Shown: piece by piece, positions 40,438 to 61,114 of the stretch
Position numbering within the stretch: position 1 is the first letter of the stretch
How the letters are laid out: each line of letters opens with the position of its first letter
Source: Acidimicrobiia bacterium
GTDB taxonomy: Bacteria; Actinomycetota; Acidimicrobiia; Spongiisociales; ZC4RG35
NCBI GenBank assembly: GCA_965203555.1
Contig: CBDBCY010000002.1
Coordinates: 99,185 to 163,184, forward strand
Reading direction: 5' to 3'
DNA length: 64,000 nucleotides
Program-made: the position numbers and the translations under genes
Notes under the pieces: model-generated
Told to the model about the DNA's origin: nothing
Database searches by the model: none
What the model saw: only the letters and a program-made list of their open reading frames with translations

Positions 40438-40567
40438 TTTGCACTCGTCCTTCCAATGGCTAGTCTTATGTCGCGTCTATGGTATATTATATGTCAAGGG
40501 ATCGCTAAGGAGAGTCACTAACCCTGCATACGTACGCCATGCCGTTTTTTCCAGGTAAGAGGGCTTG

Positions 40568-44902: not shown

Positions 44903-45852
44903 CGGTCGTCGACGGGGTCTGCCCTTTGATGACCGACCCCGACGCCTGGGACGGCTGGATTGAGGGAGGGGTGGACATCGCGGTTCCCACCGTGGCCAAC
45001 TGGGAGGGCCCCGCCGAGACCCAGGATCTGCTTGAGCAATGGGACCGGTGGTTGACCGAAGACGATCGTTTGATCGCGGTCAATGAACCCTCCGACTTCG
45101 ACCAGTTCCCTCTTCCGAGAAGGCTGGGAGTGATCATCCACTTCCAGAACACCCTCCCCTTGGGAGACGATCTGGCCAACTACGAGCGGTTCCACCGACA
45201 GGGCCTGCGGATGGTCCAGGTCTGCTACAACCGGACCAACCTGGTGGGAGACGGATGCCTGGAGCCCGGGGACGGCCCGCTCACCCCGTTCGGCCGGGAG
45301 GTGATAAGGGAGATGAACCGGCTGGGGATGGTGGTCGACCTTTCCCACACCGGTCGCCGCACCACCTTCGACGCCATGCGCGCCTCCGCCTCGCCGCCGG
45401 TGTTCTCCCACTCCAACCCCCTGGCGCTGTGCAAGAATCGCCGCAACATCGACGACGAACAGATCCGAGCGGTGGCCGACCTGGGAGGTCTGGTTGGAGT
45501 AAACGCCTACCCGGCCTTCCTGAAACAGGGCGGCAAGGGCGCCACTGTCTCCGACTTGGTGGACCACGTCGACTACCTGGTCGACCTGATCGGACCCGAC
45601 CAGGTGGGGCTGGGGCTGGATTTCTGCTTTCTCAGCCCCGAGATCCACGCCGAGATGATCGCCTCGGGGGAGTGGAGCATCGAGGACTACCCCGACGATT
45701 CCGGAACCTACCCCATCGGCCTGGAGACGCCCGTCCAGATTCCCAACATCACCAACGAACTGATCAAGCGGGGCTATCCCTCCGACGCCATGGAGGCGAT
45801 CCTCGGCCACAACTGGATAGACCTCTTCCAAAGAGTCTGGAAAGCCCGCTGA
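44899..45852 (+). CDS. Membrane dipeptidase (peptidase M19)
   Basis: GLRMVQVCYN, EMNRLGMVVDLSH, SHSN..RNIDD, VGLGLDF. Confidence 0.92.
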   Translation: MTVVDGVCPLMTDPDAWDGWIEGGVDIAVPTVANWEGPAETQDLLEQWDRWLTEDDRLIAVNEPSDFDQFPLPRRLGVIIHFQNTLPLGDDLANYERFHRQGLRMVQVCYNRTNLVGDGCLEPGDGPLTPFGREVIREMNRLGMVVDLSHTGRRTTFDAMRASASPPVFSHSNPLALCKNRRNIDDEQIRAVADLGGLVGVNAYPAFLKQGGKGATVSDLVDHVDYLVDLIGPDQVGLGLDFCFLSPEIHAEMIASGEWSIEDYPDDSGTYPIGLETPVQIPNITNELIKRGYPSDAMEAILGHNWIDLFQRVWKAR

Positions 45853-46106
45853 TCCCGCCGGGGCCGTGTCGAGGGTGGGATTGTGGTTTGGGGGCGCACC
45901 TGTATTCCGCTGGTTCAGAGGTGGGGATGGGCAGCAGGTCGGGAGGTGGCGCCTCGCCCTTGTCTTCTATCCCTGGGGGTGTGCGCCCTTTGCAGAAGAG
46001 AGGGCCATCAGGGAGCACGGGACAGTAGCCCACCCCGGCGTGGCGGGCGATCAGCCCCAAGCACCTTCGTACAGGGCCCAGATCCAAGGTAATGGGGCGA
46101 GATACC

Positions 46107-47243
46107 ATGTCAATTGTGCTGGAACGTCTCTTGATCGAGAACTACAAATGCCTGGTTGACTTCGACCTGCGGCTGCAAGAGACCACGCTGCTTCTCGGAG
46201 CAAACGGATCCGGTAAGACAGCGGTATTGGATGTGGTTTATGGAATTCGCAGGCTGTTGGCGGGAGAAGTCAAAGTCACCGACCCCGTAGCATTTCCTCT
46301 ATCCACACTGACCCGTTGGCAGACCCATCGGCACCAACAATTCAAGCTCCAGGTGAGGGCGGGCAGCGAGAGCTTAACCTATTTGCTCCGAGTCGAACAC
46401 GATCCCGATATCGGTTCCCGGGTTGCCCGGGAGACGCTGAAGGGTGGGGACGGCACGGTGCTGTTCGACTTCGATATGGGAGAGGTGCAGTTGTACCGTG
46501 ACGATGGATCGGAGGGACCCGGGTATAAGACAGACTGGAGCGAGTCTGCTCTCGCACGTGTCGTTGAACAACCTGTCAACACACGGCTCACGGCCTTCCT
46601 GAACACCGTCCGCGACACCGTGGTCTGTACCATCCGGCCCTACGGCCTCCGTGCTGAGTCATCCCGAGCGGACCGACTCCTGGGGCGCTACGCCGACAAC
46701 TTTGTGGCATGGTATCGCAACGCCGTTCTGGAGAGCCCAGGTATGGCCCGCTCTCATGAAGAAGCTCTGCAACTTGTGATAGACGGCTTTGACAGTCTTC
46801 ACCTCAAACCGGTCGGCGTCGACACGCGAGAGTTGAGACTTCGCTTCGCCGACACAAACGGAAGTGGCAATAGCACCGAGCGTTACTGGCTCAGCTTCGA
46901 TGAACTCTCCGACGGGCAGCGGGCACTGGTGGTTCTTTACGGATTACTGCACCTGCGCGGCGGCGATGGTATCTCGATGTTCCTGGACGAGCCGGACAAC
47001 TGTGTGGCGCTTCCCGAGATCCAACCGTGGCTGTTGGCAATGCTCGAGTTGTGTGAGGAGACACCCTCCCAGGCCGTTATCTGTTCGCACCATCCAGAGA
47101 TGATCGACTACCTCGGGCCGAACTGCGGACTGATCCTGCGGCGCAACGCCTCCGGCGCCACCACCGCACGACCGGTCGGTCAGCAGGCGTCGCCGGGGGG
47201 CCTCAAGCTATCCGAGCTGGTGGCGCGGGGCTGGGATACGTGA
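46107..47243 (+). CDS. AAA_21/ABC-like ATPase
   Basis: IENYKCL, GANGSGKT, LSDGQR, FLDEPDN, SHHP. Confidence 0.9.
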   Translation: MSIVLERLLIENYKCLVDFDLRLQETTLLLGANGSGKTAVLDVVYGIRRLLAGEVKVTDPVAFPLSTLTRWQTHRHQQFKLQVRAGSESLTYLLRVEHDPDIGSRVARETLKGGDGTVLFDFDMGEVQLYRDDGSEGPGYKTDWSESALARVVEQPVNTRLTAFLNTVRDTVVCTIRPYGLRAESSRADRLLGRYADNFVAWYRNAVLESPGMARSHEEALQLVIDGFDSLHLKPVGVDTRELRLRFADTNGSGNSTERYWLSFDELSDGQRALVVLYGLLHLRGGDGISMFLDEPDNCVALPEIQPWLLAMLELCEETPSQAVICSHHPEMIDYLGPNCGLILRRNASGATTARPVGQQASPGGLKLSELVARGWDT

Positions 47244-47510
47244 GCAGGAATATCCGGGGAGTCCTGCTCTGCGAAGACCAGCAACACCAGGCGTTCGTTG
47301 TTCGTTTCCTCAAAAAGATGAGTTGGAACCCGCGAGATCTGCGAATCGAGCAGTCGCCGTCGGGTCGGGGATCGGCTGAGTATTTCGTACGGCAGCGATT
47401 CCCACGGGAGCTTCAATGGGTGCGCTCCAAGGGTGGGGAGCGGGTGTACCTGATCGTTTTGGTGGACGGCGACGCGTCCGGCGTGGTAGACACGAAGGCC
47501 TCGCTCAGCG
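47240..47510 (+). pseudogene. TOPRIM-like (DUF4276-like) ATPase partner, 3'-truncated
   Basis: LLCED, LIVLVDGD; GTG overlaps ATPase stop; runs into the convergent MBL stub. Confidence 0.65.
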
Positions 47511-47577
47511 ATTCTTCGCCGATCACAATGGCGCAATTGCCATGTGCGACATCCAAAATAAGCAATTCGGGACTCAC
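47508..47577 (-). pseudogene. MBL-fold (ComEC/Rec2-like) hydrolase, N-terminal stub
   Basis: ELLILDVAHGNCAIV; GTG overlaps receiver-gene stop. Confidence 0.65.
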
Positions 47578-48258
47578 ATTCTCTCCCACACTCCCGCTGG
47601 ATCCGGAGCCTGCTCGAAGTGCACGAGGAACAGGTCCTCGGCCAGTTCCGCATCGATATTGACCTTGGCGATCATCCACTCGACTCTCCTACTGCGTACG
47701 TTTTCCCTCAGGCCGTCGTCTTCGATCATGCTCAACGGTAATTCCACTGCACTGCTTGCATTCCACCCCGGGCACTATCGCCTCCATCCGGCCAAGACCC
47801 GGAGCATCGACCGATTTGATGTGAATCCCCGTTCTTCGTGGGATCCTCTGGATGGGGATGTCGCCTTCCAATTCTGCTTTGACAAGGGCGAAACCTTTGT
47901 TGATCAGGTAAGGATCGAGCATGTCCTTCCCGATCAACACCGGCACGTCAGCTCTGCAGGGCCTGATCGCTGACATTTCATCGTGGATGTATGAACTGAC
48001 AAGGAGTGAGGGCAACCGGAGAGAACGGAAAGCGCGACGCACCGCCTCGGCTCCACGGAACGGCGCATAGTTGGAGACAGAGAGCCGCTGATCGCAAATG
48101 AAGGCTTCGGTCTCCGCTTCCACCAGCCATGCGGACAGGACATCCAGGGAAGGCAGCGGCGCCTCTCGGGAAATCACATGGTGGCCGGCTTCCTCGAGCT
48201 CTCCTTGCAGCGTCCTCCGTTCATCGACGACATCGTCGACGATCGCGACCCGCATCAC
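47574..48258 (-). pseudogene. Receiver-domain protein with C-terminal extension; +1 frameshift at C4 run 47766-47769
   Basis: VAIVDD, ICDQRL; corrected frame VPGWNAS..MIAKVNIDAE..EDLF..FE. Confidence 0.8.
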
Positions 48259-50306
48259 TTCACTCCGAACAGTGGGAGTTTTACCACGAACTCTTCTCCC
48301 TTTTGGCCGATATCGGAGGCCAAATGGGCGCTGCCTCCCAGATCTGCCGCCTCGTCGCGAACGATGGTAAGGCCGATCCCGGTTCCACCGGGCGTCGTTG
48401 TCTGGCCGGGGCTCCAGATATCGGCTCTGCCGATGTTGCGGATTCCCGGACCGTTGTCCTTGACAGAAATCAGAAGGTGACCACCCGACTCCACTGTGCG
48501 TATCAGCAGTTCGCGGCCCTCGATCAGTTTGTCGGAATCCTGGAAAGCGCGGATTGCGTTGGTGATCAGGTTCGCCAGGATGGATTCCAACGATGCCGGC
48601 CGCCCCCAGATCTGCGGCGACGTGCCTACGTATTCCGTCTTCACTGTTACGTCGGAATTCTCCAGGAACGGAGCAAAGAGTTCGAGCACGCTGTCGATGA
48701 CCTGGTGTACTTTGAACACGCCGACCCTGCGTTTTTCGCGTTGCAGCAGAGTGAGCGGGATCCTGACGAAGCTTCGCAGAGCCTTGGTGGCTCGTCGCAG
48801 TAAACCGACTTGGCTTCCCAGGGAGTCGGCGTAGACGTCGCCAAGGGCTTGTTTGCCTCGGCGTTCGATAGCTCCTGCCAGTCGCTGAATACGAGTGAGG
48901 GGTCCGTCCGCCTCGTGGGCGAAGACGGATGCCGTCGTTCCGACGGTGCTGAGAGTGCGATACAACTGAAGGTCGCTCAGGATTGCCTGGCGCTCGCGAT
49001 GACCCTCCTGGTTGAGTTGGGCCAATGCCTCCTCCACGCCCTTGCGTTGGTTTTCCGGTACCCCGGCCACCGCTTCCTCCATGCCCTTGATGGCCTCCTC
49101 CAACCGTTCCTTACGCCGCACTCGTCGTTTTCTGCGTTTGCGGTCTCGTTCCTTGACGCGGCGGCGGGACATCCAATCGAGCGCGTCGCCGGCGAACGCT
49201 CGCAGTTCCGAGAAGGCGTCGTTCTCGACAAAACCGGACCTGTCGGTCTTTGCGAGGAGCATCTCCTCGGTGTCGTCCACAATGACCAGCCCGATGGAGT
49301 TGTTGGTCGATGGGCGCTCCTCGGGGCTTCGCACCCGTCGTAGATTCATCTCCAGCCAGTCATGGCCCCGGTCGCCGTAGGGATGTACGCGCAGACCTCA
49401 GTTATAGAGATGCACCCCTCCAACCTCGCGAAGCCAGTTTCGGACTTCCCCCACGGTAGCGGTTCTGTCGGCGAACGAAGCGTCGTTGAGAGTGAACTCC
49501 CAGAGTTCGAATGTTGCCGGGGGCGCCCGGTAAACGCCGGAGCGCCGCAGATCGTCGTGATCCGCTTTCCATTTCACATTCCCTCGACTATCCAATGCAG
49601 CGGCAGATCCCCGGCCATCTGTACCCAACTCGGCGCGGAGCCGGTGGCTGGCTTCGGTGAAGTACCCGCTTCTCACCAATTGCGCCAAGTCTCGGAAGTC
49701 ATCGCTGATCAACTCGGCGCTGAAACTTCGCTGCGACTCGAATGGATCGGCCAGGAGAATCAACGAGCGAGCCAGGCGTTTGGTGTCCATCCGTCCCAAA
49801 GGGCTCATCAGGTCACTAATGGCGATTGACGTCCCGAATGCTCCCGATGTGGGCCTTTTCTCGATCTCAAGAGCCACATCCTCCACCACTGGAACGTCAT
49901 CGAAGAGTCTCCAGTCGATCTCCATGCGATACTCGGTTCCCGGTTCATCCCGCGGCCTGGTCTCCAGGACAACTCTCCTCCCGAGCCTCAGCGCGGCGAG
50001 TCGGCCCAGTCCTTTTTCTCCCACCGGCAGCCTGCCCAGCCTCGTTCTCTCCCGCGGATCCTTCTCGGAGCGCCCGACCACCAGCCACCCGGCGCGGATC
50101 TGCTGAGCGGTCATGCCATCCCCGTCGTCGGAGACGATTACCTTCCCACCGTGTCGAGTCGTCTCCGACAGCGTCACCCGACACACGCGCGCATCGGCGT
50201 CGTACGCATTCTTCGCCAGTTCAATGATGCCCTGGTCAGGATGGGATACGAGTTCCTCGCCCAGCCTGGCGAGAATCGACGGCGCAAACCGGAGCGTCTC
50301 AGACAT
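48255..50306 (-). pseudogene. GHKL (MORC/HSP90-like) ATPase fused to a histidine kinase; one in-frame TGA at 49398-49400
   Basis: ELAKNAYDADA, DDGDGM, GEKGLGR; H-box FAHE, N-box NLITNA, DNGPGI, GTGIGL; both ORFs share a frame. Confidence 0.9.
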
Positions 50307-51639
50307 CAGCGGTTTCGTCCAGCCACGGCAGGCGGCTGATCGCTGATACGGTCAAATGCCTGGTGCGGATCTGTTGGTCCAACCAATCCCGGCTTCGGGG
50401 GTCGGCCAACACATCCATCAGGTTGTGGCATGAAGACTCGGCGCCGTTCTTGGGGGTTGCCACCAGCAGGTGGTTCTCAACCGCCACCGGACGGTCGCCG
50501 ACCACCAAAACACCGCCCGCCCGCCTTTTCTGACCAGGCCGGGATGTGCGACGGATCGCCACGAACGGAGGATCGAATGTCCGGCCGCTGAACCTCCTCC
50601 ACTCCCCGTCAGGATTGAACGATCCGGAAAGCGGTAGACGTCTCGGCCAAATGAACGGGTGCCGAGGCCCTGTTTCGGGGTCTCGGTGCGGCACGACCGT
50701 TCCGACACACACGTCGAAAAAGTCGCCAACCGAAGCTCCGTGATGTCGGGGCGTCCACTGCACGGGTTCGGCTCCGGAATCGGACTTGGTGCCGCGAAGG
50801 ATGAACACGTCAACATCGGTTTCTTCATCGAACACCCCACAGATGTCGATGTCCGAGATGTCCATCATCGACTCGATCAGGGAACGCCACTTCCCGTATC
50901 GAGTGCCCGACCGAAGGACGTCCGGGAGGATGGCGGTAATGGACACGCCCTTCGGCGCATATTCCAGAACCCGGATCAGAAAAACGGCCGCTTCGGAGAC
51001 ACGACCTCCGGCCCACGATGTTTCCTCGGGGACGTCCACATATCCGAACGGCGGATTGAGGACGATATGGCGGCTCCGGCTCGCCAGGCTCTTTTGGGAG
51101 CGGCCGTCGCCGACCACTACCCACGGGAACGCGTCCCGCGGCATGTCCCCGGGGGTGGCCTGTCCTGTTCGGTAGACCGCCGCCAAGAACAATCGCAGCC
51201 TGGCGGTCTCCACAAAGATCGGTTCAACATCGCACCCCAGAAGGCGTTTACCCCAGTGGTGGACAGTCGCTCCCAGGCTGTCGAAAACCGGAAGCCTCAT
51301 AGCGGATTCGATCAGCAGGTCGCCGGCGCCGCAGGCGGGATCGAAATAGACAACTTCTCCAGCGTCGTCGTGTGGCGGTGTTGGGATGGCTTTGGCCCGT
51401 ATCGCACTCGTAGTAAAGAAGGCGCCCTGTTCTCGACGCGTCTGCAGTTCCACCAGATTTCTGAGTTCAGCGGCGGCCTGGCCGTTTACGGCGTTCGACA
51501 GGGCTGCCATGTGGCTGTCCACCCCGTCATCCGCTATAGACGAAAGCAGTTCGCGAAGGTGAGAGGCGTATGTCCGGTAGTTGGTGATCATTACCTGTTC
51601 CGTGACGGGGAGGGCTTCTGGCGTTGAGTGCAAGAACAC
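50299..51639 (-). CDS. N6-adenine DNA methyltransferase (gamma class) with C-terminal TRD; start uncertain
   Basis: GAFFT, DPACGAGDLL, NPPF; stop overlaps kinase start. Confidence 0.92.
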   Translation of the reverse strand: MFLHSTPEALPVTEQVMITNYRTYASHLRELLSSIADDGVDSHMAALSNAVNGQAAAELRNLVELQTRREQGAFFTTSAIRAKAIPTPPHDDAGEVVYFDPACGAGDLLIESAMRLPVFDSLGATVHHWGKRLLGCDVEPIFVETARLRLFLAAVYRTGQATPGDMPRDAFPWVVVGDGRSQKSLASRSRHIVLNPPFGYVDVPEETSWAGGRVSEAAVFLIRVLEYAPKGVSITAILPDVLRSGTRYGKWRSLIESMMDISDIDICGVFDEETDVDVFILRGTKSDSGAEPVQWTPRHHGASVGDFFDVCVGTVVPHRDPETGPRHPFIWPRRLPLSGSFNPDGEWRRFSGRTFDPPFVAIRRTSRPGQKRRAGGVLVVGDRPVAVENHLLVATPKNGAESSCHNLMDVLADPRSRDWLDQQIRTRHLTVSAISRLPWLDETADV

Positions 51640-52153
51640 AGACCACCCTCATCCAACCATACCGCAGGCGGGCCGAACCACCATGGAATAGTCCCCGGCA
51701 ACGGCTCACGGCGGGTTTGGTCGAGAACTGAGGAGAGAGTGCCCATGTTCTGGGGCGTCTACGGGGTTGATCAATGCTGTCGACACAGCTACTGCCACGC
51801 AAGGCTTTCGGGGGACTCGGTGGCGTCTAGCTCCAGGGTCTCTACCGGGTCGACGACGCCTCAGCTCGCAGCTGGCCCGGGGTGTACCGGGTGAAGGGGG
51901 GAGGATCGGTCTTACGTGCTTCTCGTCGAAGATGTTCCTGGGGTCACCCGCGCCCTGCCTGGAATGCGACTTGCGGCAGTGAGGAAGATCGCTACTCTGC
52001 CCAAGAGACGAGGCCAATCCCTCGAGAGCAAGATGTAACGATTCGAGGGTTTGTTTGTCTTGGTGTATGTCGGGAGAGTTTGTGGCGTTTGTTGAGTTGC
52101 AGGCTCCCGGCCAAGGAAAGATTGCAATCTATTTAGAGGAGGTAAGCTTACTT

Positions 52154-54424
52154 ATGTTTGCTACTTTCAGCCGTATTCGGCGTCATGTAGCGGTGCTTTC
52201 GGCGCTTGCTTTGATGGCCAGTGTGCTGGTCGCGGTGCCTGCTGTTGCTGCTGATGACGATCCGAAGATGGACTACAAGGCGACTTTCGACGCCTGCGGT
52301 ATGGTGCCTTCGTCGGGCTTCGAGGATGTTCCGATGAGTCATGCCAACGCCGGTGACATCGACTGTATCGCCTATTACGGGATCACCAAGGGCACCTCGG
52401 CGACCACCTATTCGCCGTTGATGTCGGTGACCCGGGAGCACATGGCCCTGTTTTTGACCCGTCTGGCCGGCCTGGTCGGCATTGAGATGGCGTCCGATCC
52501 GGATGATGCGGGTTTCACCGATATCGGTGACCTGTCGATGGAGTCGCAGACGGCTGTGAATCAGTTGGCCGATCTGGGTATCACCATGGGTACTTCGGCT
52601 ACCACGTATTCGCCTGCCGATTCGGTGACTCGTGGTCAGATGGCGTTGTTCATCTCTCGGTTGATGGACAAGATGACCCCGATGATGGACGGGGATACGG
52701 CGTACGGGTACACGCCCGAAAAGGTGATAGACGTTGCTGACGGTGACGACGATGATGATCTGCCCGACAAGACGGTGATGTCGCCGTTCACCGATCTTGG
52801 CTCTGTGACCAAGTCTGCTTATGACGCGATCAGTGCGTTGTGGGAGTTGGGTGTTGCTTCGGGTATTTCTGACACGGCTTATGGTCCGTCGGCTCTGATC
52901 ACTCGTGCGTCGATGGCTGGTTTCATGGCCGCGGTGTTGGATCACTCCAACGCTCGGCCGGCCGGTGTGAGCATCCAGGCTTCCAAGACTGGGGGCTTCG
53001 GAGAGTTCGATTCCACGATCGCTGTGTCGTATCGGGATGAGATGTTCATGCCGATGGTCGATGTGTCCGTCAAGGTCTTCGACAGCATGACGGTTGGCGC
53101 GTTCAACGAGGACGGTGGCTGCTCGACGGCTTCTGAGTGTGCGTGGAGCGATGACGAGTCGTTGACCGACGCTTCGGGCAACATCTTCCAGGATGGTGAT
53201 ATCACCAACGGGAAGATGAACACCTACTACGCGTGGATGGGTGATTCTGACGCCGATGAGAACGACTTCGACGTCGACACGTCCACCCATGCGACGGTCA
53301 CTCTGTCTTCCACCACCGATGCTGTGGCACTGAAGGTCACTACTGACATCAACGAGAACTCCAGCAATAAGAACACGGTGGACATCGACGCCACAAGCAG
53401 TGTCACCCTCACCGCGCAGTTGGTCGACGGTGACGGCGAACCTGTGGCCAAGTCCGGTGTGGAGGTCAAGATCGGCGTCGCACAGGGCACCGCCACCCTG
53501 TATCCGGCGCCTGCTGCGATGAAGACCGATGATGACGGTATGGTGACCTATACCACATCCGGTCCGAAGTCCACCAAGGAGAACAACGATCCTGACCGGA
53601 TCGACACGATTACGTTCAGTTCCAATGTGGACGGCAGTACCGCCGATCCCCCCATTGCGCCTGCTACGGGTGCTGATACCGGAAATGGGACTGTTGCAGT
53701 AAGCGATAATGGTGAGACCGTGGTAGCCACGATCTTCTGGACGGACTCCGACCCGACGCTGGTCACGATTGACGCAGTCACCGACCCGGTGACTCGGGAA
53801 GCGCAGGGTTCCGGTAAGGGAAGCACTGATGACTACGCTTTCTTGAGCGGCCAGAACAAGGTGACCGTCCGATCCTCGGTGTCGTTCTACGACCAGTACG
53901 GCAACCCCGCCGGCAAGGGCAACTCGGTCCTGATCAGCATCGGGACCGGTGATGGCAGTTCCGACATAAGGACCGTGAGCAGCAGAGGCATGGCCAGGTG
54001 GACCCGCACCCTTGACGGGGAATTGGGCACCGCCGTACCCGTGACCTACGCACTCCAGGATGCCACAGGAACAGTGGCTACTCCTGTTGCGCTCACTGGC
54101 GCTCCAACCGTTACTGCCACCTCGGTGGTCCCGGTGAGACACGCCGATGACGACAGCACGGTCGCTGTCGCTGATGGTGCAATCACTGCGGTCTACGCCG
54201 ATGAGGACCGGTTCCGCATCACCGGTGCGCTGTACAGCTACGATGACGGCGACACCTTCATCAACGGCATCTCCGGCCACGATGACGAAGGCAAGCGGAT
54301 CACTCTTGATGGGTTCGAAGGACTGATCAAGCCAGGAACTGGCGGAACTGCGGGTACTGTCGAGATCGTGTTCTACGACGACGACGGTGTCAGCATCTTC
54401 CGCGTCAGCACTGTCGGTTCATAA
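52154..54424 (+). CDS. SLH-domain surface protein (paralog 2; strong RBS)
   Basis: GAGGAGGT RBS, signal peptide, 3 SLH-like repeats, own terminator. Confidence 0.92.
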   Translation: MFATFSRIRRHVAVLSALALMASVLVAVPAVAADDDPKMDYKATFDACGMVPSSGFEDVPMSHANAGDIDCIAYYGITKGTSATTYSPLMSVTREHMALFLTRLAGLVGIEMASDPDDAGFTDIGDLSMESQTAVNQLADLGITMGTSATTYSPADSVTRGQMALFISRLMDKMTPMMDGDTAYGYTPEKVIDVADGDDDDDLPDKTVMSPFTDLGSVTKSAYDAISALWELGVASGISDTAYGPSALITRASMAGFMAAVLDHSNARPAGVSIQASKTGGFGEFDSTIAVSYRDEMFMPMVDVSVKVFDSMTVGAFNEDGGCSTASECAWSDDESLTDASGNIFQDGDITNGKMNTYYAWMGDSDADENDFDVDTSTHATVTLSSTTDAVALKVTTDINENSSNKNTVDIDATSSVTLTAQLVDGDGEPVAKSGVEVKIGVAQGTATLYPAPAAMKTDDDGMVTYTTSGPKSTKENNDPDRIDTITFSSNVDGSTADPPIAPATGADTGNGTVAVSDNGETVVATIFWTDSDPTLVTIDAVTDPVTREAQGSGKGSTDDYAFLSGQNKVTVRSSVSFYDQYGNPAGKGNSVLISIGTGDGSSDIRTVSSRGMARWTRTLDGELGTAVPVTYALQDATGTVATPVALTGAPTVTATSVVPVRHADDDSTVAVADGAITAVYADEDRFRITGALYSYDDGDTFINGISGHDDEGKRITLDGFEGLIKPGTGGTAGTVEIVFYDDDGVSIFRVSTVGS

Positions 54425-54448
54425 ACAGTAAACGTTCGACTATCTGAA

Positions 54449-54472
54449 GGAGGCTCCCCCCGGGGAGCCTCC
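54449..54472 (+). terminator. Terminator hairpin after SLH paralog 2
   Basis: ggaggctccc..gggagcctcc. Confidence 0.75.
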
Positions 54473-54499
54473 CTCCCTTTAGCGACAGGTCAGGACATT

Positions 54500-56635
54500 G
54501 TGCTTCTCTCTTCAAGACGCCATACAGCGATAGTTACGGCCTTCTTGCTGGTGGCCGGTCTTGTGTTTGCTGCACCGGTCTCGGCTGTGGATGGTTCTTT
54601 TCCCTCGCCAAGCTATTTGGCTTCATTTGATGCTTGTGAAGACATACCGGCCTCCGACTTCGATGACCTGCCTGGTGATCAGTCTCAGGCGGACAACGTC
54701 AACTGCATCGCTTACTTCGGGATTACCAGGGGGACTTCGGCTACGACCTTCTCGCCCGCTGATCCGGTGACCCGCGAGCAGATGGCGTTGTTCCTGATCC
54801 GTCTGGCTGGCCGGGTCGGGATTGCCATTCCCTCTGCCGGCGACTTTGGATTCTCTGACATCGGCCACCTGAGCGCCGGATCCCGGGTTGCCATCAACCA
54901 GTTGGCAGGGCTGGGGATTACCAAGGGGACTTCGGCCACGACCTTCTCGCCCGCTGATCCGGTCCCCCGTTGGCAGATGGCGTTGTTCATCGCCCGGTTG
55001 ATGGACAAGATGGAACCTCCGGCCTACGGAGACTACCGATTCGGCTACACCCCGGCCGATGTGGTTGACACGTCCCTCAGGCCGGTGGATGCTCCATTCA
55101 CCGACTTGGATGGGGTTTTGAAGGACACGTTCGACACTATCAACCGGCTGTACGAATTGGGGGTCGTCGATGATGGAACAGGAGGGACTTACAGACCTTC
55201 GGTGGACATTACCCGCGCCACCATGGCCGATTTCATGGCTGCTGTGCTCGATCACTCCGGCCTACGCCCTGCGGGTCTGAACATCAAGGCCGCCAGGATC
55301 TCGGAATACGGACCCACCGAAGTCGTGTTGATGGTCTCCGTGCGAGATCCCGACTTCGGTCCGGTCGAAAGCCAGAGGGTAGATGTATTCAGCAGCGGGT
55401 TAGTGAGCGGGGGGCTGGACGAGGAAGGAGCCTGCATACCGGCGTTGGTGACCGGCGACTGCACCTGGAACGCCGATGACAGGGCCACCGACCAGGAGGG
55501 GAACATCTGGGTCACCTACCGGCTTGACGAAGGGGCTACTTCGGTGTACTACGCCTGGATCGGCGCTGGCCCCGGTACGCAGTTCGACGCCGACGAGGTG
55601 GACGAAGCCACCGTCGCGGTTACTTCCCAACCTGACGTGGCAGGGATCAGGGTCACCTCCGACGTTCGGGAACATGCTGACGGCAACAAGGTACACCTTG
55701 CCCGGACCAGGCGGGTGACTCTCACTCTCCAGGTGGTCGACCGGGACGACAGACCCTTATCCCGTCCAGGGTTCGACTTCGAGGTGGGCTTGGAGCAGCT
55801 TGTAGACGGCGCCCAGCGACTCAGGCACGGCGAAGTCCGACTGACCACCGATGAGGAGGGCAAGGCGACATTCAGGTTGGAGGGAGTCGAAGACCGAAGG
55901 GCTGACACCAATCAGACCACAGTCGATGAGGTGACCTTCAGTCATGTCGGTGAGGAAACCGGCGTTACCGATCTGTCTGATGTGGTTGTCGCCATAGAGT
56001 GGAGCGAGGAAGCTTCCCAGACCCACAAGGCTGTGGCAAGGGCACCCGACTATGTGATCATCAGGGATGACGGCGACGTTTCGATCAGGGCGTCCATCAC
56101 CCTGTACGACCAGTACGGGTTTGGTCATCGGACAGGCGCCGGTCAGCAGGTGGAGATGACCATCGGGGGACAGGACCTCTCCGCCTCAGTGAATGGGTCC
56201 GGCACCGGCACCCGAAGCGCCCGACTGCAACACGAAGAAGTCGGTTTCCCTGTGCCGGTGACCTTCATTGCAGACCCCGACGGTGACGGCGTCGATCTCC
56301 CGACCGGAGTCGATGATCCGCAAGAGGTCTACGTCCAACTGGTGACGGTGGCAACATCCAAGGACGCTGGTAACGACTTGGGAATCCACACCTTCTTCCC
56401 GAGACACAACCGCTTCACGACAGAAGTCGGCCGTGGCAACCCCGACGCCAATCTGCTCTTCTACTACAAACCTGGAGACAAGTTCAAGGCTGGGGACAGG
56501 CTTATCGCCATCGACGAGTTCGAAGAATTGCTCACCCCTTTCGAAGGCGATGAGAACTTGGCCAGGATCGACATCGTGACATACGACAGAGAAGGATCGA
56601 GCGAATTCAGGGTCACCAGGTCCGCCTCCGATTAG
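54500..56635 (+). CDS. SLH-domain surface protein (paralog 3)
   Basis: Signal peptide, 3 SLH-like repeats, shared YAWIG and LYDQYG motifs. Confidence 0.9.
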   Translation: MLLSSRRHTAIVTAFLLVAGLVFAAPVSAVDGSFPSPSYLASFDACEDIPASDFDDLPGDQSQADNVNCIAYFGITRGTSATTFSPADPVTREQMALFLIRLAGRVGIAIPSAGDFGFSDIGHLSAGSRVAINQLAGLGITKGTSATTFSPADPVPRWQMALFIARLMDKMEPPAYGDYRFGYTPADVVDTSLRPVDAPFTDLDGVLKDTFDTINRLYELGVVDDGTGGTYRPSVDITRATMADFMAAVLDHSGLRPAGLNIKAARISEYGPTEVVLMVSVRDPDFGPVESQRVDVFSSGLVSGGLDEEGACIPALVTGDCTWNADDRATDQEGNIWVTYRLDEGATSVYYAWIGAGPGTQFDADEVDEATVAVTSQPDVAGIRVTSDVREHADGNKVHLARTRRVTLTLQVVDRDDRPLSRPGFDFEVGLEQLVDGAQRLRHGEVRLTTDEEGKATFRLEGVEDRRADTNQTTVDEVTFSHVGEETGVTDLSDVVVAIEWSEEASQTHKAVARAPDYVIIRDDGDVSIRASITLYDQYGFGHRTGAGQQVEMTIGGQDLSASVNGSGTGTRSARLQHEEVGFPVPVTFIADPDGDGVDLPTGVDDPQEVYVQLVTVATSKDAGNDLGIHTFFPRHNRFTTEVGRGNPDANLLFYYKPGDKFKAGDRLIAIDEFEELLTPFEGDENLARIDIVTYDREGSSEFRVTRSASD

Positions 56636-56765
56636 CTGCCTCGGTCCCTGACCGGAGAAGCCGTCCGTCCCCACGGGGTAGGGGAAGTTGGAGGAGATTG
56701 CCTTTGGATAGCCTGGAGGTTGGGGATTTTCCAAACCCTTTGATAAAGAAAGATCTGGATTAAAG

Positions 56766-56796
56766 GAGAAGAGGCTCCCGGTAGGAGCCTCTTCTC
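56766..56796. terminator. Terminator between convergent SLH genes
   Basis: gagaagaggctcc-cggta-ggagcctcttctc, 13-bp stem. Confidence 0.85.
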
Positions 56797-56826
56797 GGTT
56801 TAGGTTGAACCTATTGGTCTTTAGGT

Positions 56827-59228
56827 TTAGGGTGATCCGTCGTCGGTGACTCTGAAGACACTAGTGCCGTCAGCGTTGTAGATCACCACTTCCACCTCAA
56901 CAGCGGCCTCTGCAGTCGTGGCGCCATTTGCAACGGTGTTGTGGTTGTTGTCCTGGTCCATCAACGTCTGGAACCTCTCCATGCTGACCGCGCGGCCCTC
57001 ACCTCCGGAGCCGGCGGTGCTGTCGATGAAGGTGTCGCCGTCGTCGTAGGAGAACACCAGCGTTGGGTCACCACCCGTTGCGCCTGCGAGGGCGAGGAAC
57101 TTGTTGTCCTTCACCATCAGGTGCGTCACGACATGTCCTCCAGTACTAGCAGAACTGGCGGGGTTCACAACATGAACACTGCCCGCTGCAGCACGGTACT
57201 GATGCCCGTCCGTCACGTTCGCCGGAGTGGTGTCGTCGTACACCGCGGAAAGGTCGGTCCAAAGTGTCGTACCGTCGGACTGGTAGATGTTGGTGGTCGG
57301 CTGGATACCGGCAGCGGTAGTGTCGCTGTCGATCTGGGCGCCCGCCGAGGTCAGCAGGTAGCCGTTTGCGTCTCTACTGTAGGCAATGACGCCTGCGTAG
57401 GAGACGGCTATCGGAGTACCTGCGGCGACATTAGCAGCGCCAGGCTTGCGCGACCAACGCGCGTAGCCTCTGCTGATCACATTCCTCGTGCCTGCGTTAC
57501 CGTCGCCCGTGCCAATCGTTATGGTGGCCGTCTGACCAGCGCGTGAGCGGTGGGAGTTACCGTACTGGTCCCACAGACGCACGATCGCATTGACCGACGG
57601 GTTCCCGTCCAACACGTAGGTGGGAGTCTCGAGGGTGGTCTTGGTGAGAACCGGGATCTCTTCGACCCAGTTAATGTCCTCCATCGCAGTCCTCTGCGTC
57701 GGATTTCCATTGGCGTCGAGTTCGGTGAACACGATGTCATCCATCCGAGAGTTGTTTCCACTGGTGTTTGTCGGTCCGGTAATCGTGAAGGACACTTGGC
57801 CCATGTCGTCGGTAACCAACTCGTCCTCATGGGTGTTGGTATAGGTACGACCGTCTGCTGGTCCCTGGTCATAACGGACACGGAACTTCACACCCGCACG
57901 TTCCACATTGGCATTCGCTTCCATGTTCCTCAACTGGACGGTGAAGGTCACACTACTGGTCGCACGCAGGTCAACCTTCTGACCGTTTTCGTCAGAGAAG
58001 GCATGCGTGTTGATGGTCGAACTGATACTCAGCATGTCCTGAGCATGCTTAGCGCTGGCCATGGCAGTCTGCGCGGTGAACTTGTCGGAATCGAACTTGT
58101 CGCCGTCGTCGTTGCCGATCCAGGCGTAGAACGTCCTGGTCTTACCGGCGGCCACGTCATGATCCATGATGAGGTTGCCGTCCACGTCGGTGGCGTCGTC
58201 GTTGTCATCCCACACACAGTCATCCTCAACAAAGTCTCCGCCGAGCACATCATCGGGGTCGGTGGCGAAGTTACAAGTGCCGTCATTGCGGAGAGCCTTG
58301 TCACCAGCAGTGCTGGAGAAGATATCAATAGCCTGATCCTCGACCGCTCCGAAACTGTCGGTCCGCATCGAAGCGACCACGGTGACACTCGTGTCGCCCC
58401 AACCGGTGCTAGGAGTGACCTGGATGCTCAAACCAGCCGGACGGGCATTGGAATGATCCAACACCGCAGCCATGAACCCGGCCATCGAAGCACGAGTGAT
58501 ATCGGCCCCGGAGCATAACTGGTGTCAGAAATGCCCGCAGCAACACCCAACTCGTACAACTGAGTGATCGCGTCGTACTCGTCCTTGGTCGCACGACCCA
58601 GATCGGTGAACGCCGACTTGACGTCGACTTTCTTGTCGTTGTCCGCCACATCAGAAGGCGTGTAGCCGTACTGGGTGGTGGTGCTCAAACCGATCGCTCC
58701 GTCAGCCTGCGGAGTCAAATGGTTCATCAACCGAGCGATGAACAAAGCCATCTGACCCCGGGTGACGTCGTCGTCAGGTGAATACGTGGTAGCAGAAGTG
58801 CCCATCGTGATACCCAGATCGGCCAACTGATTGATCGCGGTCTGCGACTCCATCGATAGGTCACCGGTGTCGGTGAAACCCGCATCATCCGGGTCCTCCG
58901 CGATGTCGATGCCCACCAGACCGGCCAAACGGGTCAGGAACAGGGCCATGTGCTCACGGGTGACCGACATCAACGGCGAATACGTGGTCGCCGAGGTGCC
59001 CTTGGTGATCCCGTAATAGGCGATACAGTCGATGTCACCCGCATTGGCATGACCCGAGGGAACATCCTCGAAGTCCGACGAGGGCGCCATACCGCAGGCA
59101 TCGAAAGTCGCCTTGTAGTCCGCCTTCGGATCAGCAGCAACAGCAGGCACCGCGACCAGCACACTGGCCATCAAAGCAAGCGCCAAAAGCACCGCTACCT
59201 GCCGCCGAAAACGGCTGAAAGTAAACAT
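56827..59228 (-). CDS. SLH-domain surface protein (paralog 4); -1 frameshift at C4 run 58506-58509
   Basis: 5' end nearly identical to paralog 2; adding one G restores YAPGADITRASMAGFMAAVLDHSN. Confidence 0.88.
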
Positions 59229-59481
59229 AAGTAAGCATATCGGACGGGCGTTTTCTTCGCTATTTTGTTCCTCGGCCGCCAGCAGACGCCGGGGATCCGA
59301 TCTTCGTCCCTCGAGAGCTGACGATCCCACCGACTCTGCTCTCAGCAGGAGCCCGGCCCTCGCCGGTCGGACCGGAATGCCGAAGGTCGGATCGGTTTGG
59401 CTCCCACAGAAGAATCACGACTTCGAACGGCAGGGATAGGCCAGATACTCCGCATTGTCCGAGCAATCTGGGTGGCTGCCA

Positions 59482-59958
59482 ATGCCCACAGTGTTTACTA
59501 TTTGGGTGGGAGCGACACCGGCTGGGGTGCCTATGGTTTTTCAAGCACGTAAATCTCTTACGGCGTCGGATTTGCCTGCGTTGATGTCCGATCCTTGTTC
59601 CAGGGGACCTTACAGAGTGCCGCTTGCGCAGTTTGTGATGGACTGGAACCGATCGGACGATCCCATTGGATTGATATTGTGCGAGCCGAACTATGACGGC
59701 GCAGATCCTTTGGTTATGCCGGCCATTGCCGTGGTTGTGCATGCGTTGGCAGTTCGAGATGGGGCGCCCGTGCCTGGATGGGTATGGCGACATCGGGCAG
59801 GAGGCGATGCAGCTCTCTTTGGGCACAACCTGAATTCGCGTATGGGAAGGTGGGTGCGCGCTCGCGCACCTGAAGCGTCTCTTTTCCATCGTGTGTTCTT
59901 CGACGCCAGCTTTCTCGATAAGGGAACTAGAAGGCAGTGGCAACCAAGGGTGTCCTAG
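59482..59958 (+). CDS. Putative antitoxin partner of the DUF6036-like NTase; start uncertain
   Basis: LAQFVMDWNR..AIAVVVHALAVRDGAPVPGW; overlaps NTase start; paralog at 61772..62143. Confidence 0.65.
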   Translation: MPTVFTIWVGATPAGVPMVFQARKSLTASDLPALMSDPCSRGPYRVPLAQFVMDWNRSDDPIGLILCEPNYDGADPLVMPAIAVVVHALAVRDGAPVPGWVWRHRAGGDAALFGHNLNSRMGRWVRARAPEASLFHRVFFDASFLDKGTRRQWQPRVS

Positions 59959-60503
59959 ACGCGGCCCAACTCCTTCGACTGTTTGACGAAGTAGACCGGG
60001 AATTGACGAGCGAAGTCAGCATCCTCATTGGTGGGGGAGCGTCGTTGGCGCTCCTGTGGGGTTCGCGGGGTACCTACGACGTGGATGTTGTGTCTGATGA
60101 CATGACGCCGGAATTGAGGGCGGCGGTAGCAAGAGTGGGCACCAGGGCGGGGATAAGCGAGGACTGGCTGAATGACGGAGCGAAAGGGTTCGCTCCTTAT
60201 CTACCTGCCGGCCCGGAGCTTGTCTTTGACGGGAGCAACCTTCGAGTATTCAGCGCAAACGCGCGGTATTTGCTGGCGATGAAACTGATGGCAGCTCGGG
60301 GAGAAGACGGCGAGGACATACAAGTGCTCATGGAGAAGGCTCGGATGTTTGCTGTTGAGGACCTCCTTGAGTTGGTCGAACACGCCTACCCGAATTCTGA
60401 GATCCCGGTGACCGTGCAATACCTTGCGGAGGATGTGGTCTGGCAATACCACCAACAGCATGGCCGCGATGATCGAGGTCCTGATCTTTCACTCGGTCGA
60501 TAA
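59937..60503 (+). CDS. DUF6036-like nucleotidyltransferase
   Basis: IGGGASL..RGTYDVD, DWLNDG, YLLAMKLMAAR..DGEDI. Confidence 0.85.
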   Translation: MATKGVLDAAQLLRLFDEVDRELTSEVSILIGGGASLALLWGSRGTYDVDVVSDDMTPELRAAVARVGTRAGISEDWLNDGAKGFAPYLPAGPELVFDGSNLRVFSANARYLLAMKLMAARGEDGEDIQVLMEKARMFAVEDLLELVEHAYPNSEIPVTVQYLAEDVVWQYHQQHGRDDRGPDLSLGR

Positions 60504-60736
60504 GGGTCTGCTGGTCCCCTCTGCTTGACGGGGACAGGTTATGTCCTCCATTACCAGACCTAAGCGGTCTGTCACAAGCCACCTAGGGGAGGTGACAACG
60601 ATCATCAGGCCGGAGGTGCTCTTTGCTCCGCCCAAAGTTTAGAAGGGGGGATGGGCACCACTACACAGTCCCATCGGGGTGGGGATTGAGAGGGCCAGAC
60701 TTCGGGTCTCCTGTTAGTCTGAAACCTAGTCGAACA

Positions 60737-61114
60737 ATGCAATCACGAACCGGCGTTGCCGTTGAATCCCCGCTTTATCGCCCTCCTTCTGAAGAAACCA
60801 TAGAGGCTGCCATTGACGAAGCCGTCGTTGGCTACCGTCGAGTGTTCGGTGAACGCTTGGCGCAGGTTTGGCTTTTCGGTTCCCGGGCAGTGGGAGACCA
60901 CCGGCCCGATTCCGATGTTGACCTGCTGGCGGTGCTCCGCGAAGAGGGTCCGATCGGTAGGGAACTGGATCTGTTGTATTCTGTGGCGGAACCTATACGA
61001 CTCGCCTACCGAGTGTACATTGATGGGCACCCCACCACTTTGCGAGAATTCCAGACAAGCGATGACGACTTCCACTTTTTCGTGAGAAGTGAGGGAAGGC
61101 GAGTGGATGCGTGA
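60737..61114 (+). CDS. MNT antitoxin (paralog of 40944..41339)
   Basis: LFGSRA..RPDSDVDL..IDGHPTT..DDDFH. Confidence 0.9.
   Translation: MQSRTGVAVESPLYRPPSEETIEAAIDEAVVGYRRVFGERLAQVWLFGSRAVGDHRPDSDVDLLAVLREEGPIGRELDLLYSVAEPIRLAYRVYIDGHPTTLREFQTSDDDFHFFVRSEGRRVDA

Follow-up and report, generated by a model that had tools for sequence, protein, structure and literature searches.

Some pathogens alter their outer coat through DNA rearrangement. In Campylobacter fetus, Dworkin and Blaser reportedly traced S-layer variation to a single promoter of the sap genes and to an inversion that changes the expressed gene. The invertible element that carries the sap promoter is located between divergent genes, and switching is RecA-dependent. 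The sap homologs have in common a conserved 5' region with sharp limits, extending from a point before the ATG to ~0.5 kb inside the gene, and are variable in their 3' parts; their products bind LPS and possess no SLH repeats. The vsp locus of Mycoplasma bovis and the vsa locus of M. pulmonis are surface-lipoprotein loci of the vpma type, with an Xer1-type tyrosine recombinase and a single promoter. The slpA and slpB genes of Lactobacillus acidophilus are in opposite orientation, and we know of no tyrosine recombinase encoded at their locus.

The vpma locus of Mycoplasma agalactiae has a unique promoter, and the available text on it (PMC5634654) describes Xer1 inversions as well as a 38-bp homologous crossover. 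In L. acidophilus, inversion of a segment places the silent S-layer gene behind the active promoter, and 0.3% of chromosomes had that gene in the expression site (available part of PMC3666127). The tyrosine recombinase PsrA catalyses only one of the three inversions of pneumococcal hsdS, according to the accessible portion of PMC4948785. Gene-altering programmed inversions, in which inverted repeats within coding sequence exchange the variable part of a gene much as proposed below, rest on statistical enrichment only in the available text of Milman et al. 2023 (PMC9881135); we found no SLH system described in that portion of the main paper.

Here, we analyzed a window of 64,000 nucleotides from the genome under study (G000), which belongs to a genus of uncultured Acidimicrobiia; all genomes compared were MAGs. 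Two SLH genes of this window, A and C, had been proposed to form a two-gene switch. This was not borne out, as they belong to a family with at least five copies in G000 and up to ~17 in relatives. We consider it fairly probable, from the sequences compared, that the pair belongs to a surface-variation system with one expression site, in which DNA inversion brings about the switch, probably by means of a recombinase acting at a short core together with homologous exchange.

As far as the available vpma text allows the comparison, both systems have paralogous surface-protein genes in both orientations, one (here presumed) promoter, a gene for a tyrosine recombinase within the locus or next to it, a short conserved site 5' in every gene, and homologous exchange, independent of the recombinase, that uses short stretches of shared sequence and yields, or here would yield, chimeric genes. 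The differences from vpma are that a high-GC actinobacterium here has SLH-anchored beta-sandwich proteins in place of lipoproteins, that the core overlaps the start codon and ~500 nt of coding sequence are co-homogenised with it, that clusters reach ~17 copies with up to three recombinase genes, and that switching is, for the present system, a prediction. With sap, the family shares the bounded conserved 5' region and variable 3' parts, and the divergent layout with a promoter between two copies was found in the relative G007; in G000, however, the pair is convergent and the genome encodes a dedicated recombinase. The slpA/slpB locus differs, in its available description, by having two genes only and another anchoring domain, and hsdS loci, in theirs, hold 2-3 half-genes each, whereas whole-ectodomain cassettes are found here.

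The convergent pair and the proposed expression site

Gene A (52154-54424, + strand) encodes 756 aa with a signal-peptide-like N-terminus, three SLH repeats (PF00395 in three stretches, E 2e-24) and a beta-sandwich array. In its AlphaFold model (pLDDT 84), the SLH part resembles 3pyw (TM 0.81) and the remainder resembles adhesin/MG-like beta-sandwich arrays. Gene C (56827-59228, - strand, ATG at 59228) converges on it, as the original prediction stated. Overlooked at that stage was a 1-nt deletion at the G4 run 58506-58509, which splits C into two frames (59228-58428 and 58485-56827); this frameshift could be genuine or a homopolymer sequencing error. The 3' part of C is 85% identical to its ortholog in G003, and its close relatives in a protein search are all full length (781-819 aa).

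Also overlooked was gene B (54500-56635, + strand), which sits within the segment that any A/C inversion would flip. It encodes a class-2 SLH paralog of 711 aa (PF00395, E 7e-22; 37% identity to A) with its own N-terminus and no junction core, and its ortholog in G003 (92% identity) is also located directly 3' of an A-type gene. A GC-rich hairpin without a T tail (GAAGGAGGCTCCCC/GGGGAGCCTCCCTCC, 54447-54473, + strand) follows A, and in G003 the same hairpin is found 5' of the B ortholog. Between the ends of B and C, a hairpin of 13 pairs (56766-56796) is likely a two-way terminator, although terminator-like sites in the region are as frequent as expected by chance (5 found, 5.0 expected).

The predicted likeness of A and C held up on alignment. 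The perfect tracts of 55 bp (52201-52255 = 59184-59130) and 56 bp (52352-52407 = 59039-58984) were recovered, and inverted repeats pair 52162-52255 with 59130-59223 (94 nt, 96%) and 52246-52692 with 58699-59145 (447 nt, 86%). The similarity resumes, as had been noticed, in the third SLH repeat (52775-52979 against 58419-58622), where 52775-52888 pairs with 58509-58622 (78%) and 52898-52979 with 58419-58500 (88%), the longest exact match there being 14 bp. The homogenised 5' tract of A spans 52143-52692 on the + strand, with its partner at 58699-59239 on the opposite strand. Within this shared end of ~500 nt lie the codons for the signal peptide and for SLH wall-anchor repeats one and two. The 3' parts are strongly diverged (amino-acid identity ~31%, dS 1.49).

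Only A has a strong ribosome-binding site (GAGGAGGT, 52136-52143), at whose position C has CGCCCGTCCGATAT. This site closes an expression-site leader (52034-52142, + strand) that also carries TGTAAC (52034-52039) and GTCTTG (52057-52062). The leader of A presumably holds a promoter, although a consensus sigma-70 scan of the leader strand found none; in an alignment of 10 leader-bearing copies from eight genomes, conservation was limited to ~-125 to the ATG. The leader occurs once in G000, at A, the only copy there with both leader and ribosome site. Copies D, E and F on contig C1, missed by the original prediction, have the same 5' end as A and C (84-85% over 754-868 nt); like C, they are leaderless, and D is degenerate. 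The ~118 nt upstream of C (59229-59346, - strand) are near-identical to the flank of E, and the promoter scan returned a single promoter-like site, ~226 nt upstream of C, at chance level (1 found, 2.3 expected). Across the genus, leader and Shine-Dalgarno (SD) sequence accompany 10 of 56 distinct starts, about one per cluster: one in each of seven clusters, two tandem copies in G005 and one inverted in G006 (contig C1).

The junction core and the Cre-like recombinase

The similarity of A and C had been placed 8 bp before the ATG. The two genes are indeed alike from GCTTACTT-ATG, share TA at -11/-10 and differ at -9 (A in gene A, T in gene C). The family similarity starts at this junction core, T A a G c t t A C T T ATG TTT in A (52143-52159, + strand) and TATGCTTACTT ATG TTT in C (59223-59239, - strand), the latter without an upstream ribosome site. 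In all 58 gene starts examined (56 distinct, 11 genomes), the onset is exactly at -11. Information reaches 1.6-2.0 bits at -11, -10, -8, -7 and -5 and is at most 0.3 at -12 and -13; positions -4 to +6 were preset by the search pattern.

In line with the prediction, the Pfam matches of 22 ORFs at 37-64 kb of the window yielded no invertase and one DDE transposase. Of the two options left by the prediction, RecA or a trans-acting enzyme, the second gained a candidate: a Cre-like tyrosine recombinase encoded between D and E on contig C1 (79591-80586), outside the window and 3.3 kb from the nearest junction. RecA thus has a competitor, and the crossover may fall in the ~20-bp core instead of the long tracts. 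The protein carries PF00589 and PF02899. Its 17 PDB matches, led by one at E 5e-17, are without exception Cre or derivatives of Cre, and its H-x-x-R, W and Y positions line up with theirs. Cre of phage P1 is its closest solved relative (24% identity over 89% of the length), closer relatives (34-38%) are plasmid recombinases, and it falls far below the Xer family cut-offs (29 bits against 220), in contrast to the Xer1-type enzyme of vpma. It is one of three tyrosine recombinases in G000. Unlike in Cre/loxP, a search of the core for a 13-8-13 lox-like structure found none, and the role here would be chromosomal cassette inversion rather than plasmid dimer resolution.

The recombinase genes are linked to the clusters. 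Homologs (E<=1e-30) occur in 14 of 17 genomes of the genus and in 0 of 14 outside it, the three genomes without one including G005 (two contigs, 94% complete). Fifteen of 27 genes lie within 300 bp of a junction, usually at 80-300 bp, and four more lie within a cluster. Six of the 27 have no SLH copy in the fetched flank. This would fit an enzyme that serves, for example, island integration or dimer resolution while RecA-type crossover, as in sap, occurs at any point of the inverted 5' tracts of ~500 nt. This alternative is also favored by the perfect tracts of 55 and 56 bp, by the mosaicism at the 5' end of A (below) and by a core that is not clearly palindromic (inverted arms of 6-8 bp only). 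We nevertheless hold it unlikely, given the boundary at one nucleotide in 58/58 sites and the restriction of the recombinase to the family-bearing genus, close to junctions. Moreover, A/C dS is not flat but climbs steeply away from the core over the first 215 codons, from 0.04 (codons 0-33) to 0.24 (33-100), 0.61 (100-165) and then 1.04 up to codon 215; further 3', it is 0.39 in the third-SLH tract (codons 215-265) and 1.49 in the 3' part. Finally, in G006 a complete leader is reversed on a 146-bp segment flanked by perfect 20-bp inverted repeats (AGGAGATAAGTGAACTTATG), which are short for RecA, and one of the two repeats joins non-SLH DNA directly after the ATG.

Evolution of 5' ends and 3' cassettes

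The histories of the two gene parts were traced on trees of 44 of 50 copies. In the nt 1-480 tree, genome labels change 11 times, where 7 is the minimum and shuffled labels average 27.6 (none of 200 shuffles reached so low a count); in the 3' protein tree they change 24 times, against a shuffled average of 27.5. The first 100 nt are the most alike stretch in 5/5 genomes tested. These patterns show, as far as sequence comparison can, that the 5' ends evolve in concert within genomes and that the 3' cassettes are old types common to several species. Gene A itself is a case in point: its nt 0-540 match D, E and F of G000 at 85-97%, closer than A-type orthologs, and from nt 900 it matches the A-type orthologs, mostly at 82-92%, one window falling to 75% and 73%; the matches change over near nt 540, 720 and 780. 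Against the G003 ortholog, dS of A is 0.28 in the 3' part and 0.21-0.78 in the 5' part. The 5' end of A is a mosaic derived from E-type copies within G000. Such a mosaic is what homologous exchange predicts; a clean site-specific core swap would have carried A's own 5' end along.

It is improbable that there is no programmed switching, i.e., that this is an ordinary expanding SLH family in which each copy is self-expressed by leaderless or weak-SD initiation, the 5' likeness comes from incidental gene conversion and from selection acting on secretion and anchoring, A is live and C is a decaying pseudogene. The frameshift in C and the broken D agree with it, as do protein-level constraint on SLH anchors and the good conservation of B despite a weak SD. 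However, 5' dS between A and C is far below 3' dS (0.04-0.6 against 1.5), as the prediction required, and values of 0.04-0.24 over the first 100 codons, next to 1.5 in the 3' part, cannot be put down to protein constraint. The G000 core TATGCT (-11 to -6) also fits a TANNNT -10 box for a leaderless start, but the hexamer ends in A or G in most other genomes, so this reading is not conserved. Of 40 leaderless copies, 35 are intact, with ORFs of 690 aa or more. In 8/8 clusters, the leaderless copy closest to the leader gene points the opposite way (overall 25 inverted, 11 direct), and this excess suggests that a geometry suited to inversion has been selected for.

The homologous 125-nt leader is moreover found on unlike cassette types between species, as the proposed comparison of arrangements across relatives brought out. 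The A type is at the leader in G000 only; the C type is at the leader in G013a and two metagenome contigs, and leaderless in G000, G003 and G013b. Nine leader-bearing rows on the 3' tree gave eight changes, equal to shuffled labels. G000 and G003 have blocks of 4538 nt (87.7%) and 2511 nt (87.3%) in common, whose ends coincide with junctions. The 3'-to-3' neighbours are unlike in these two genomes, and 5' inversions alone are insufficient, so other rearrangements must also have occurred. In G006, blocks of 4569 nt (100%) and 11,692 nt (99.9%) are identical or nearly so to second copies, run junction to junction and have unlike flanks; with the reversed leader, they look like recent events, although the identical blocks could be assembly artefacts. 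Copying instead of flipping, in which a leaderless cassette or convergent pair enters the expression site by non-reciprocal gene conversion with the donor unchanged, as in Neisseria pilE/pilS, would suit this 11.7-kb duplication and the 4569-nt convergent pair, one copy of which lies beside leaderless flanks and the other beside the reversed-leader locus, but is very improbable in view of those possible artefacts, the excess of inverted copies and single cassettes (3' identity 30-50%) without a conserved 3' anchor for two-ended conversion.

A model for switching by inversion

Each family member consists of a start-codon core (from -11), a homogenised 5' end of ~500 nt and one of several old, highly divergent beta-sandwich ectodomains. 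In the model that we favor, recombination between the 5' ends of opposed copies would invert the intervening DNA, ~6-7 kb including B for A and C, and place another ectodomain behind the leader. The cluster-encoded recombinase would most likely catalyse exchange at the ~20-bp core, from which homologous exchange or gene conversion would extend into the first ~500 nt. We infer that the leader is the only promoter, that the leaderless copies are silent and that switching takes place within a population.

One expressed copy, inverted spares and 5' recombination, as originally predicted, fit the leader found only at A, the low 5' dS, the mosaic and the differing relatives. The predicted outcome of a long-tract crossover fared less well, since, as assembled, the frameshifted C would not deliver its C-terminal domain: crossover in the 56-bp or a 26-bp tract gives a 269-aa stub at the expression site, and only crossover in the third tract gives an intact hybrid of 805 aa. 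With one equipped gene and spare copies that share the same recombination-prone start, this bacterium can probably change its coat by DNA rearrangement.

Anatomy of the SLH locus

The G000 assembly of this Acidimicrobiia bacterium comprises 3.42 Mb in four contigs (C1 to C4) with ~62% G+C, and the window is the final 64 kb of contig C2. Gene A (52154-54424, + strand, 756 aa) and gene C (ATG at 59228, − strand) are convergent, and a third SLH gene, B (54500-56635, + strand), lies between them. Much of the original prediction was borne out here: A and C face each other, their upstream sequences align as random sequences would until similarity starts at GCTTACTT-ATG, the perfect runs of 55 bp (52201-52255) and 56 bp (52352-52407) sit exactly where they had been placed, and the ribosome site GAGGAGGT precedes A and is absent at C. 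A repeat finder returned A/C inverted repeats of 94 nt at 96% (52162-52255/59130-59223) and 447 nt at 86% (52246-52692/58699-59145), as well as two more tracts, at 78% and 88%, across the third SLH repeat.

The A/C pair is therefore real, but the two-gene view of the locus had missed B, a frameshift in C, and three further copies of the 5′ end on contig C1. C is split over two frames by a 1-nt deletion at the G4 run 58506-58509, which may be real or a homopolymer error. The C1 copies are D (C1:76278, + strand, broken), E (C1:83850, − strand, intact) and F, which is cut ~100 nt into its coding sequence, as C1 ends inside its conserved 5′ end. The core, a conserved stretch around the ATG that we also call the junction, was found four times in G000 (A, C, D, and E), and the leader, a conserved block of ~125 nt plus the ribosome site, once, at A (52034-52153). 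Rfam had no hit in 51000-60000, which means that the leader does not belong to the known RNA elements, and a consensus promoter/terminator scan of the region, uninformative for this lineage, stayed at chance level. The upstream flanks of C and E are near-identical over ~118 nt. The E frame is open for 113 codons 5′ of its ATG (fetched locus L047, 11424-11763, or C1:83851-84189) and the C frame for 34 codons; these open frames are probably due to chance, though they run through the shared flank.

The SLH wall-binding module consists of three tandem SLH repeats (PF00395). Three stretches matched this domain in A (E 2e-24), three in B (E 7e-22), and two in the 5′ ORF of C, where the third is cut by the frameshift. 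In an AlphaFold model of A (pLDDT 84, built from 59 sequences), the SLH trio resembles the SLH domain of Bacillus anthracis Sap (3pyw; TM 0.81, rmsd 3.0), and the rest is a string of beta-sandwiches, with adhesin extender repeats and macroglobulin-type domains as best matches. G000 also encodes a CsaB-family pyruvyl transferase (PF04230, C4:508834-509724, E 1e-31) and is thus predicted to be able to pyruvylate its secondary wall polymer. Taken together, the SLH repeats, the model and the CsaB-family gene indicate that these are surface proteins held to the wall by an anchor that stays the same, while the ectodomain varies.

Several features of the surroundings were recorded. Around the SLH genes there is an island of mobile and defense-type genes (37099-51639 and 59937-61114) coding for a DDE transposase, a HEPN protein, an Xre/MbcA-type antitoxin, an AAA/AbiEii-like ATPase, two HATPase proteins, and two nucleotidyltransferases. 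A Mu-type/rve transposase gene (L047 12728-14098) and a HicA toxin gene (L047 16079-16303) are found between E and F. A distant SLH paralog of 803 aa (42491-44902, + strand) is 39% identical to A and has no junction core; similar ones are located at C4:515764-517092 and C4:1175386-1175979. B belongs to a second class of SLH genes, which have their own N-terminus and no junction core and lie directly 3′ of a class-1 cassette (a gene copy with its own 3′ ectodomain type) on the same strand, once in G000 (54500-56635) and three times in the relative G003 (loci L029 and L027/L028). Because of this arrangement, cassettes may be two-gene units in which B depends on read-through from the expression site. 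Finally, C4 ends in 839 bp that recur at 96% identity where C2 starts. C3 (20.7 kb) is a 91-94% variant of C4:2095529-2116800, which indicates that the assembly holds strain variation.

A unique leader and concerted, mosaic 5′ ends

Strong matches to A were detected in all 17 genomes of the genus (G000 included), often in many-copy clusters with both orientations, and we compared the clusters of G000 and ten relatives. A search pattern that fixed positions −4 to +6 of the core and left the others free gave 58 gene starts, 56 of them distinct. Conservation among them sets in at −11, reading T A n G T n A A C T T ATG TTT, with none at −12 and −13, and the core extended from −11 to ~+9 at 58/58 sites. 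The leader and ribosome site were present at 10 of the 56 distinct starts: seven clusters have a single leader each, G005 has two on tandem duplicates, and contig C1 of G006 has one in reverse orientation. The leader is conserved between species from a TGTAAC block at ~−125, and each locus is predicted to have one expression site. Among the leaderless copies, 35/40 retain intact ORFs of at least 690 aa.

Single clusters contain paralogs in both orientations. Where a cluster has both a leader and one or more leaderless copies, the closest of these copies was inverted relative to the leader gene in 8/8 cases (seven convergent and one, in G007, divergent), and leaderless copies overall were inverted in 25 cases and direct in 11, counts that are not independent since the genomes are related. 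An integron reading of the clusters was dropped because the cassettes occur in both orientations with long spacers. The core could also be read as a −10 element for a leaderless start; this suits the TATGCT of G000, but most relatives have TATGTA or TATGTG, and it was not kept as the main explanation.

In each of the five genomes compared, identity between pairs of copies was 80-97% in the first 50 nt of the genes and ~19-50% upstream, the latter being alignment noise except for the shared C/E flank in G000; past the first 50 nt, identity falls and then rises again in the third SLH repeat. Between A and C, dS was 0.04 in codons 0-33, 0.24 in 33-100, 0.61 in 100-165, 1.04 in 165-215, 0.39 in 215-265, and 1.49 beyond. 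Between A and its G003 ortholog, it was 0.28 in the 3′ part and 0.21-0.78 in the 5′ part. A has a mosaic structure, with nt 0-540 nearest to D, E, and F of its own genome (85-97%) and nt 900 onward nearest to orthologs of the A type (mostly 82-92%, with 75% and 73% in one window of the comparison). C shows the same switch of affinity near nt 480. Trees were built from 44 of 50 copies, leaving out six with ORFs below 690 aa (among them C, D, and one leader copy). For nt 1-480, the tree required 11 changes of the genome label (minimum 7; shuffled mean 27.6), and the 3′ protein tree required 24 (shuffled mean 27.5). This contrast indicates that the 3′ cassettes are old types common to several species and that the 5′ ends have been homogenized per genome. 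One rival to recombination, namely that the 5′ ends are alike through protein-level constraint alone, had been recognized in the original prediction, which proposed dS as the test; with 5′ dS far below 3′ dS, together with the mosaic and tree patterns, this rival is excluded. With its polar rise away from the core, dS offers a clean example from nature of concerted evolution that is driven by recombination and limited to one gene module.

Reshuffled cassettes and linked recombinase genes

The cassettes are reshuffled with respect to the leader. When the nine leader-bearing rows were placed on the 3′ tree, eight changes were counted, equal to shuffled labels. G000 is the only genome with the A type at the leader; in the relatives G003, G013, and G006 this type is leaderless. 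The C type follows the leader in one cluster of G013 (G013a) and in two metagenome contigs, and is leaderless in G000, G003, and the other cluster (G013b). In these two contigs, the leader closely resembles that of G000 and the C type is intact across the point of the G000 frameshift. They were the only contigs found in a metagenome scan for leader plus core, and both are from another species, so that the scan gave no second assembly of the same species. When proteins were searched with the 3′ part of C, to find an intact copy or a hybrid from the same species, the best non-self match had 87% identity. The blocks in common between G000 and G003 end at junctions (an A-B unit of 4538 nt at 87.7% and a C block of 2511 nt at 87.3%), and the 3′-to-3′ neighbors are not the same in the two genomes, so deletions and duplications also shape the clusters. 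In G003, a 61-kb SLH cluster (L027-L030) is flanked by orthologs of two C4 segments, and in G000 only ~200 bp separate these segments (C4:1637120-1637326), which places the cluster at different chromosomal sites in the two genomes.

Recent events were apparent in G006. A complete leader is reversed on a 146-bp segment between perfect 20-bp inverted repeats (AGGAGATAAGTGAACTTATG; locus L057, 3834-4019), of which the right one is the start of an A-type gene and the left one joins non-SLH DNA right after the ATG, giving a 26-codon stub by an ilvC-like gene; this join places a breakpoint inside the core. Judged from its sequence, the segment looks like a promoter inverton in the off state. In addition, a 4569-nt convergent gene pair is present at two places 60 kb apart (100% identical) and a block of 11,692 nt occurs in two copies with 99.9% identity. 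Both duplicated blocks span junction to junction between unrelated flanks, with the proviso that all G006 copies are identical over their first ~45 nt and the true endpoints could sit slightly inside the genes; the blocks may also be assembly artefacts. On contig C5 of G006, the flanks of divergent neighbors form inverted repeats over at least 4.8 kb at 97.8%. The upstream flanks of divergent neighboring cassettes are likewise often inverted repeats of at least 45 nt in G003 and G013 (L027-L036), for example G003 9293−/12013+ and 33935−/35539+, and G013a 11357−/17299+ and 23096−/28778+.

A switch at A and C had been predicted to need RecA or a trans-acting enzyme, as the window encodes no invertase. 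The window indeed has none, and a trans-acting candidate does exist: of three tyrosine recombinase matches in G000, two are Xer-like and on C4, and the third is encoded between D and E (C1:79591-80586). The C1 protein has a catalytic domain (PF00589, 47.6 bits; cut-off 27.1) and a SAM-like N-terminal domain. The catalytic residues of tyrosine recombinases are R, K, H-x-x-R, W/H, and Y; in an alignment with Cre, the R of LLR, H-S-x-R, W, and Y are in register, and the alignment stops just short of the lysine. All 17 PDB matches were Cre or Cre derivatives (best E 5e-17). The C1 protein is 24% identical to P1 Cre and 34-38% identical to unnamed plasmid recombinases. By its catalytic domain, the C1 enzyme is predicted to be a Cre-like tyrosine recombinase. 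An assignment to XerC, XerD, or XerA was rejected, with best scores of 29.3 bits vs 220 (XerA) and 25.5 vs 329.6 (XerD) for the NCBIfam equivalog cut-offs.

Homologs of this recombinase (E ≤ 1e-30) were found in 14/17 genomes of the genus and in 0/14 outside it, tallies that include genome G021. We examined 27 recombinase genes, of which 15 have a junction within 300 bp, another 4 are inside a cluster, 2 are beside degraded SLH fragments, and 6 have no SLH copy in the fetched flank. Two subtypes are 82-86% and 66-70% identical to the G000 enzyme; genes of the latter are always oriented divergently to a cassette whose signal peptide is of another kind (ATGTTTACTACGCTTAAG...), and their flank is conserved between species. 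No serine invertase (PF00239) was detected in G000 or in three of the four relatives searched. The target of Cre has two 13-bp inverted arms and an 8-bp spacer. No lox-like 13-8-13 palindrome was found by eye around the core sites, where the only symmetry is GTAAAC/GTTTAC, of 6 bp or, in some genomes, 8 bp, with 5/8 retained in G000.

Proposed switching model and relation to known systems

Judging by sequence comparison, these loci may switch within living populations. Exchange between oppositely oriented 5′ ends would invert the intervening DNA, and a different ectodomain would be made; for A and C, the flipped segment would consist of B together with the 3′ parts of both genes. We favor a model in which the recombinase would act at the core, and branch migration or homologous repair would extend the exchange into the coding sequence. 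Such a model would account for a boundary at a fixed position, for dS values that climb steeply away from the core, and for the G006 repeats of 20 bp. From the mosaic structure of A, it is clear that homologous exchange contributes as well. It should be noted that, with C as assembled, a crossover in the long tracts would lead to a 269-aa stub, and only one in the third tract (longest exact match 14 bp) would give an intact 805-aa hybrid. The usable spares in this strain may therefore be E and F rather than C.

A broader reading, to which we give somewhat less than an even chance, is that the genus has a shufflon-like system of outer-surface cassettes in which one Cre-family recombinase and one core of ~20 bp, overlapping the ribosome-site spacer and start codon of every cassette, do three jobs. 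The enzyme would flip the 146-bp promoter element on and off, would swap whole ectodomain genes behind one promoter, and would set off gene conversion that spreads as a polar wave and maintains a uniform module for secretion and anchoring.

The original prediction took the sap genes of Campylobacter fetus as its model. There, the promoter is on an invertible element between divergent homologs, unlike in G000, where the leader gene and C are convergent, as in 7/8 clusters (G007 alone being divergent). The single-promoter inversion systems of mycoplasmas (vpma/vsp/vsa), like C. fetus sap, follow the same logic as the loci studied here. In the mycoplasma systems, each gene has a short, conserved site for recombination at its 5′ end, and both orientations occur within one population. 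Features in common are paralogs in both orientations, one expression site (here at the sequence level), and a recombinase in or beside the locus, as for the G000 gene between D and E and 19/27 homologs in or beside clusters. In M. agalactiae, Xer1-independent crossovers at 38 bp yield chimeric genes (PMC5634654), and the mosaic A resembles these chimeras in pointing to homologous exchange beside a recombinase. The logic also matches that of the slpA/slpB inversion of L. acidophilus (PMC3666127), and another study lists SLH proteins as enriched among predicted gene-altering inversions (PMC9881135). Our literature search found no description of such a system for Acidimicrobiia; some of the searches gave no paper with this name at all, the papers naming both Acidimicrobiia and sponges had no mention of SLH, and a search of an S-layer review (PMC4232325) gave no passage on gene inversion. 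What is new here is the lineage, the Cre-family enzyme, the core overlapping the start codon, and the co-homogenized anchor module.

The same switching logic is now seen in an uncultured genus of Acidimicrobiia. Long-read metagenomes are the source of G000 and its relatives, and counting the alternative junctions in them makes the model directly testable. If the system is active, it would supply a compact Cre-family recombinase with a short natural target, and the shufflon-like reading, if true, would make this a natural new recombinase/site pair. To our knowledge, programmed surface-protein variation is known almost entirely from pathogens and gut commensals; that same reading would extend it to a non-pathogenic, probably host-associated actinobacterium. 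In an active system, the outermost layer of the cell would change while the wall anchor stays constant, with phages, grazers, or host cells as the likely pressures.
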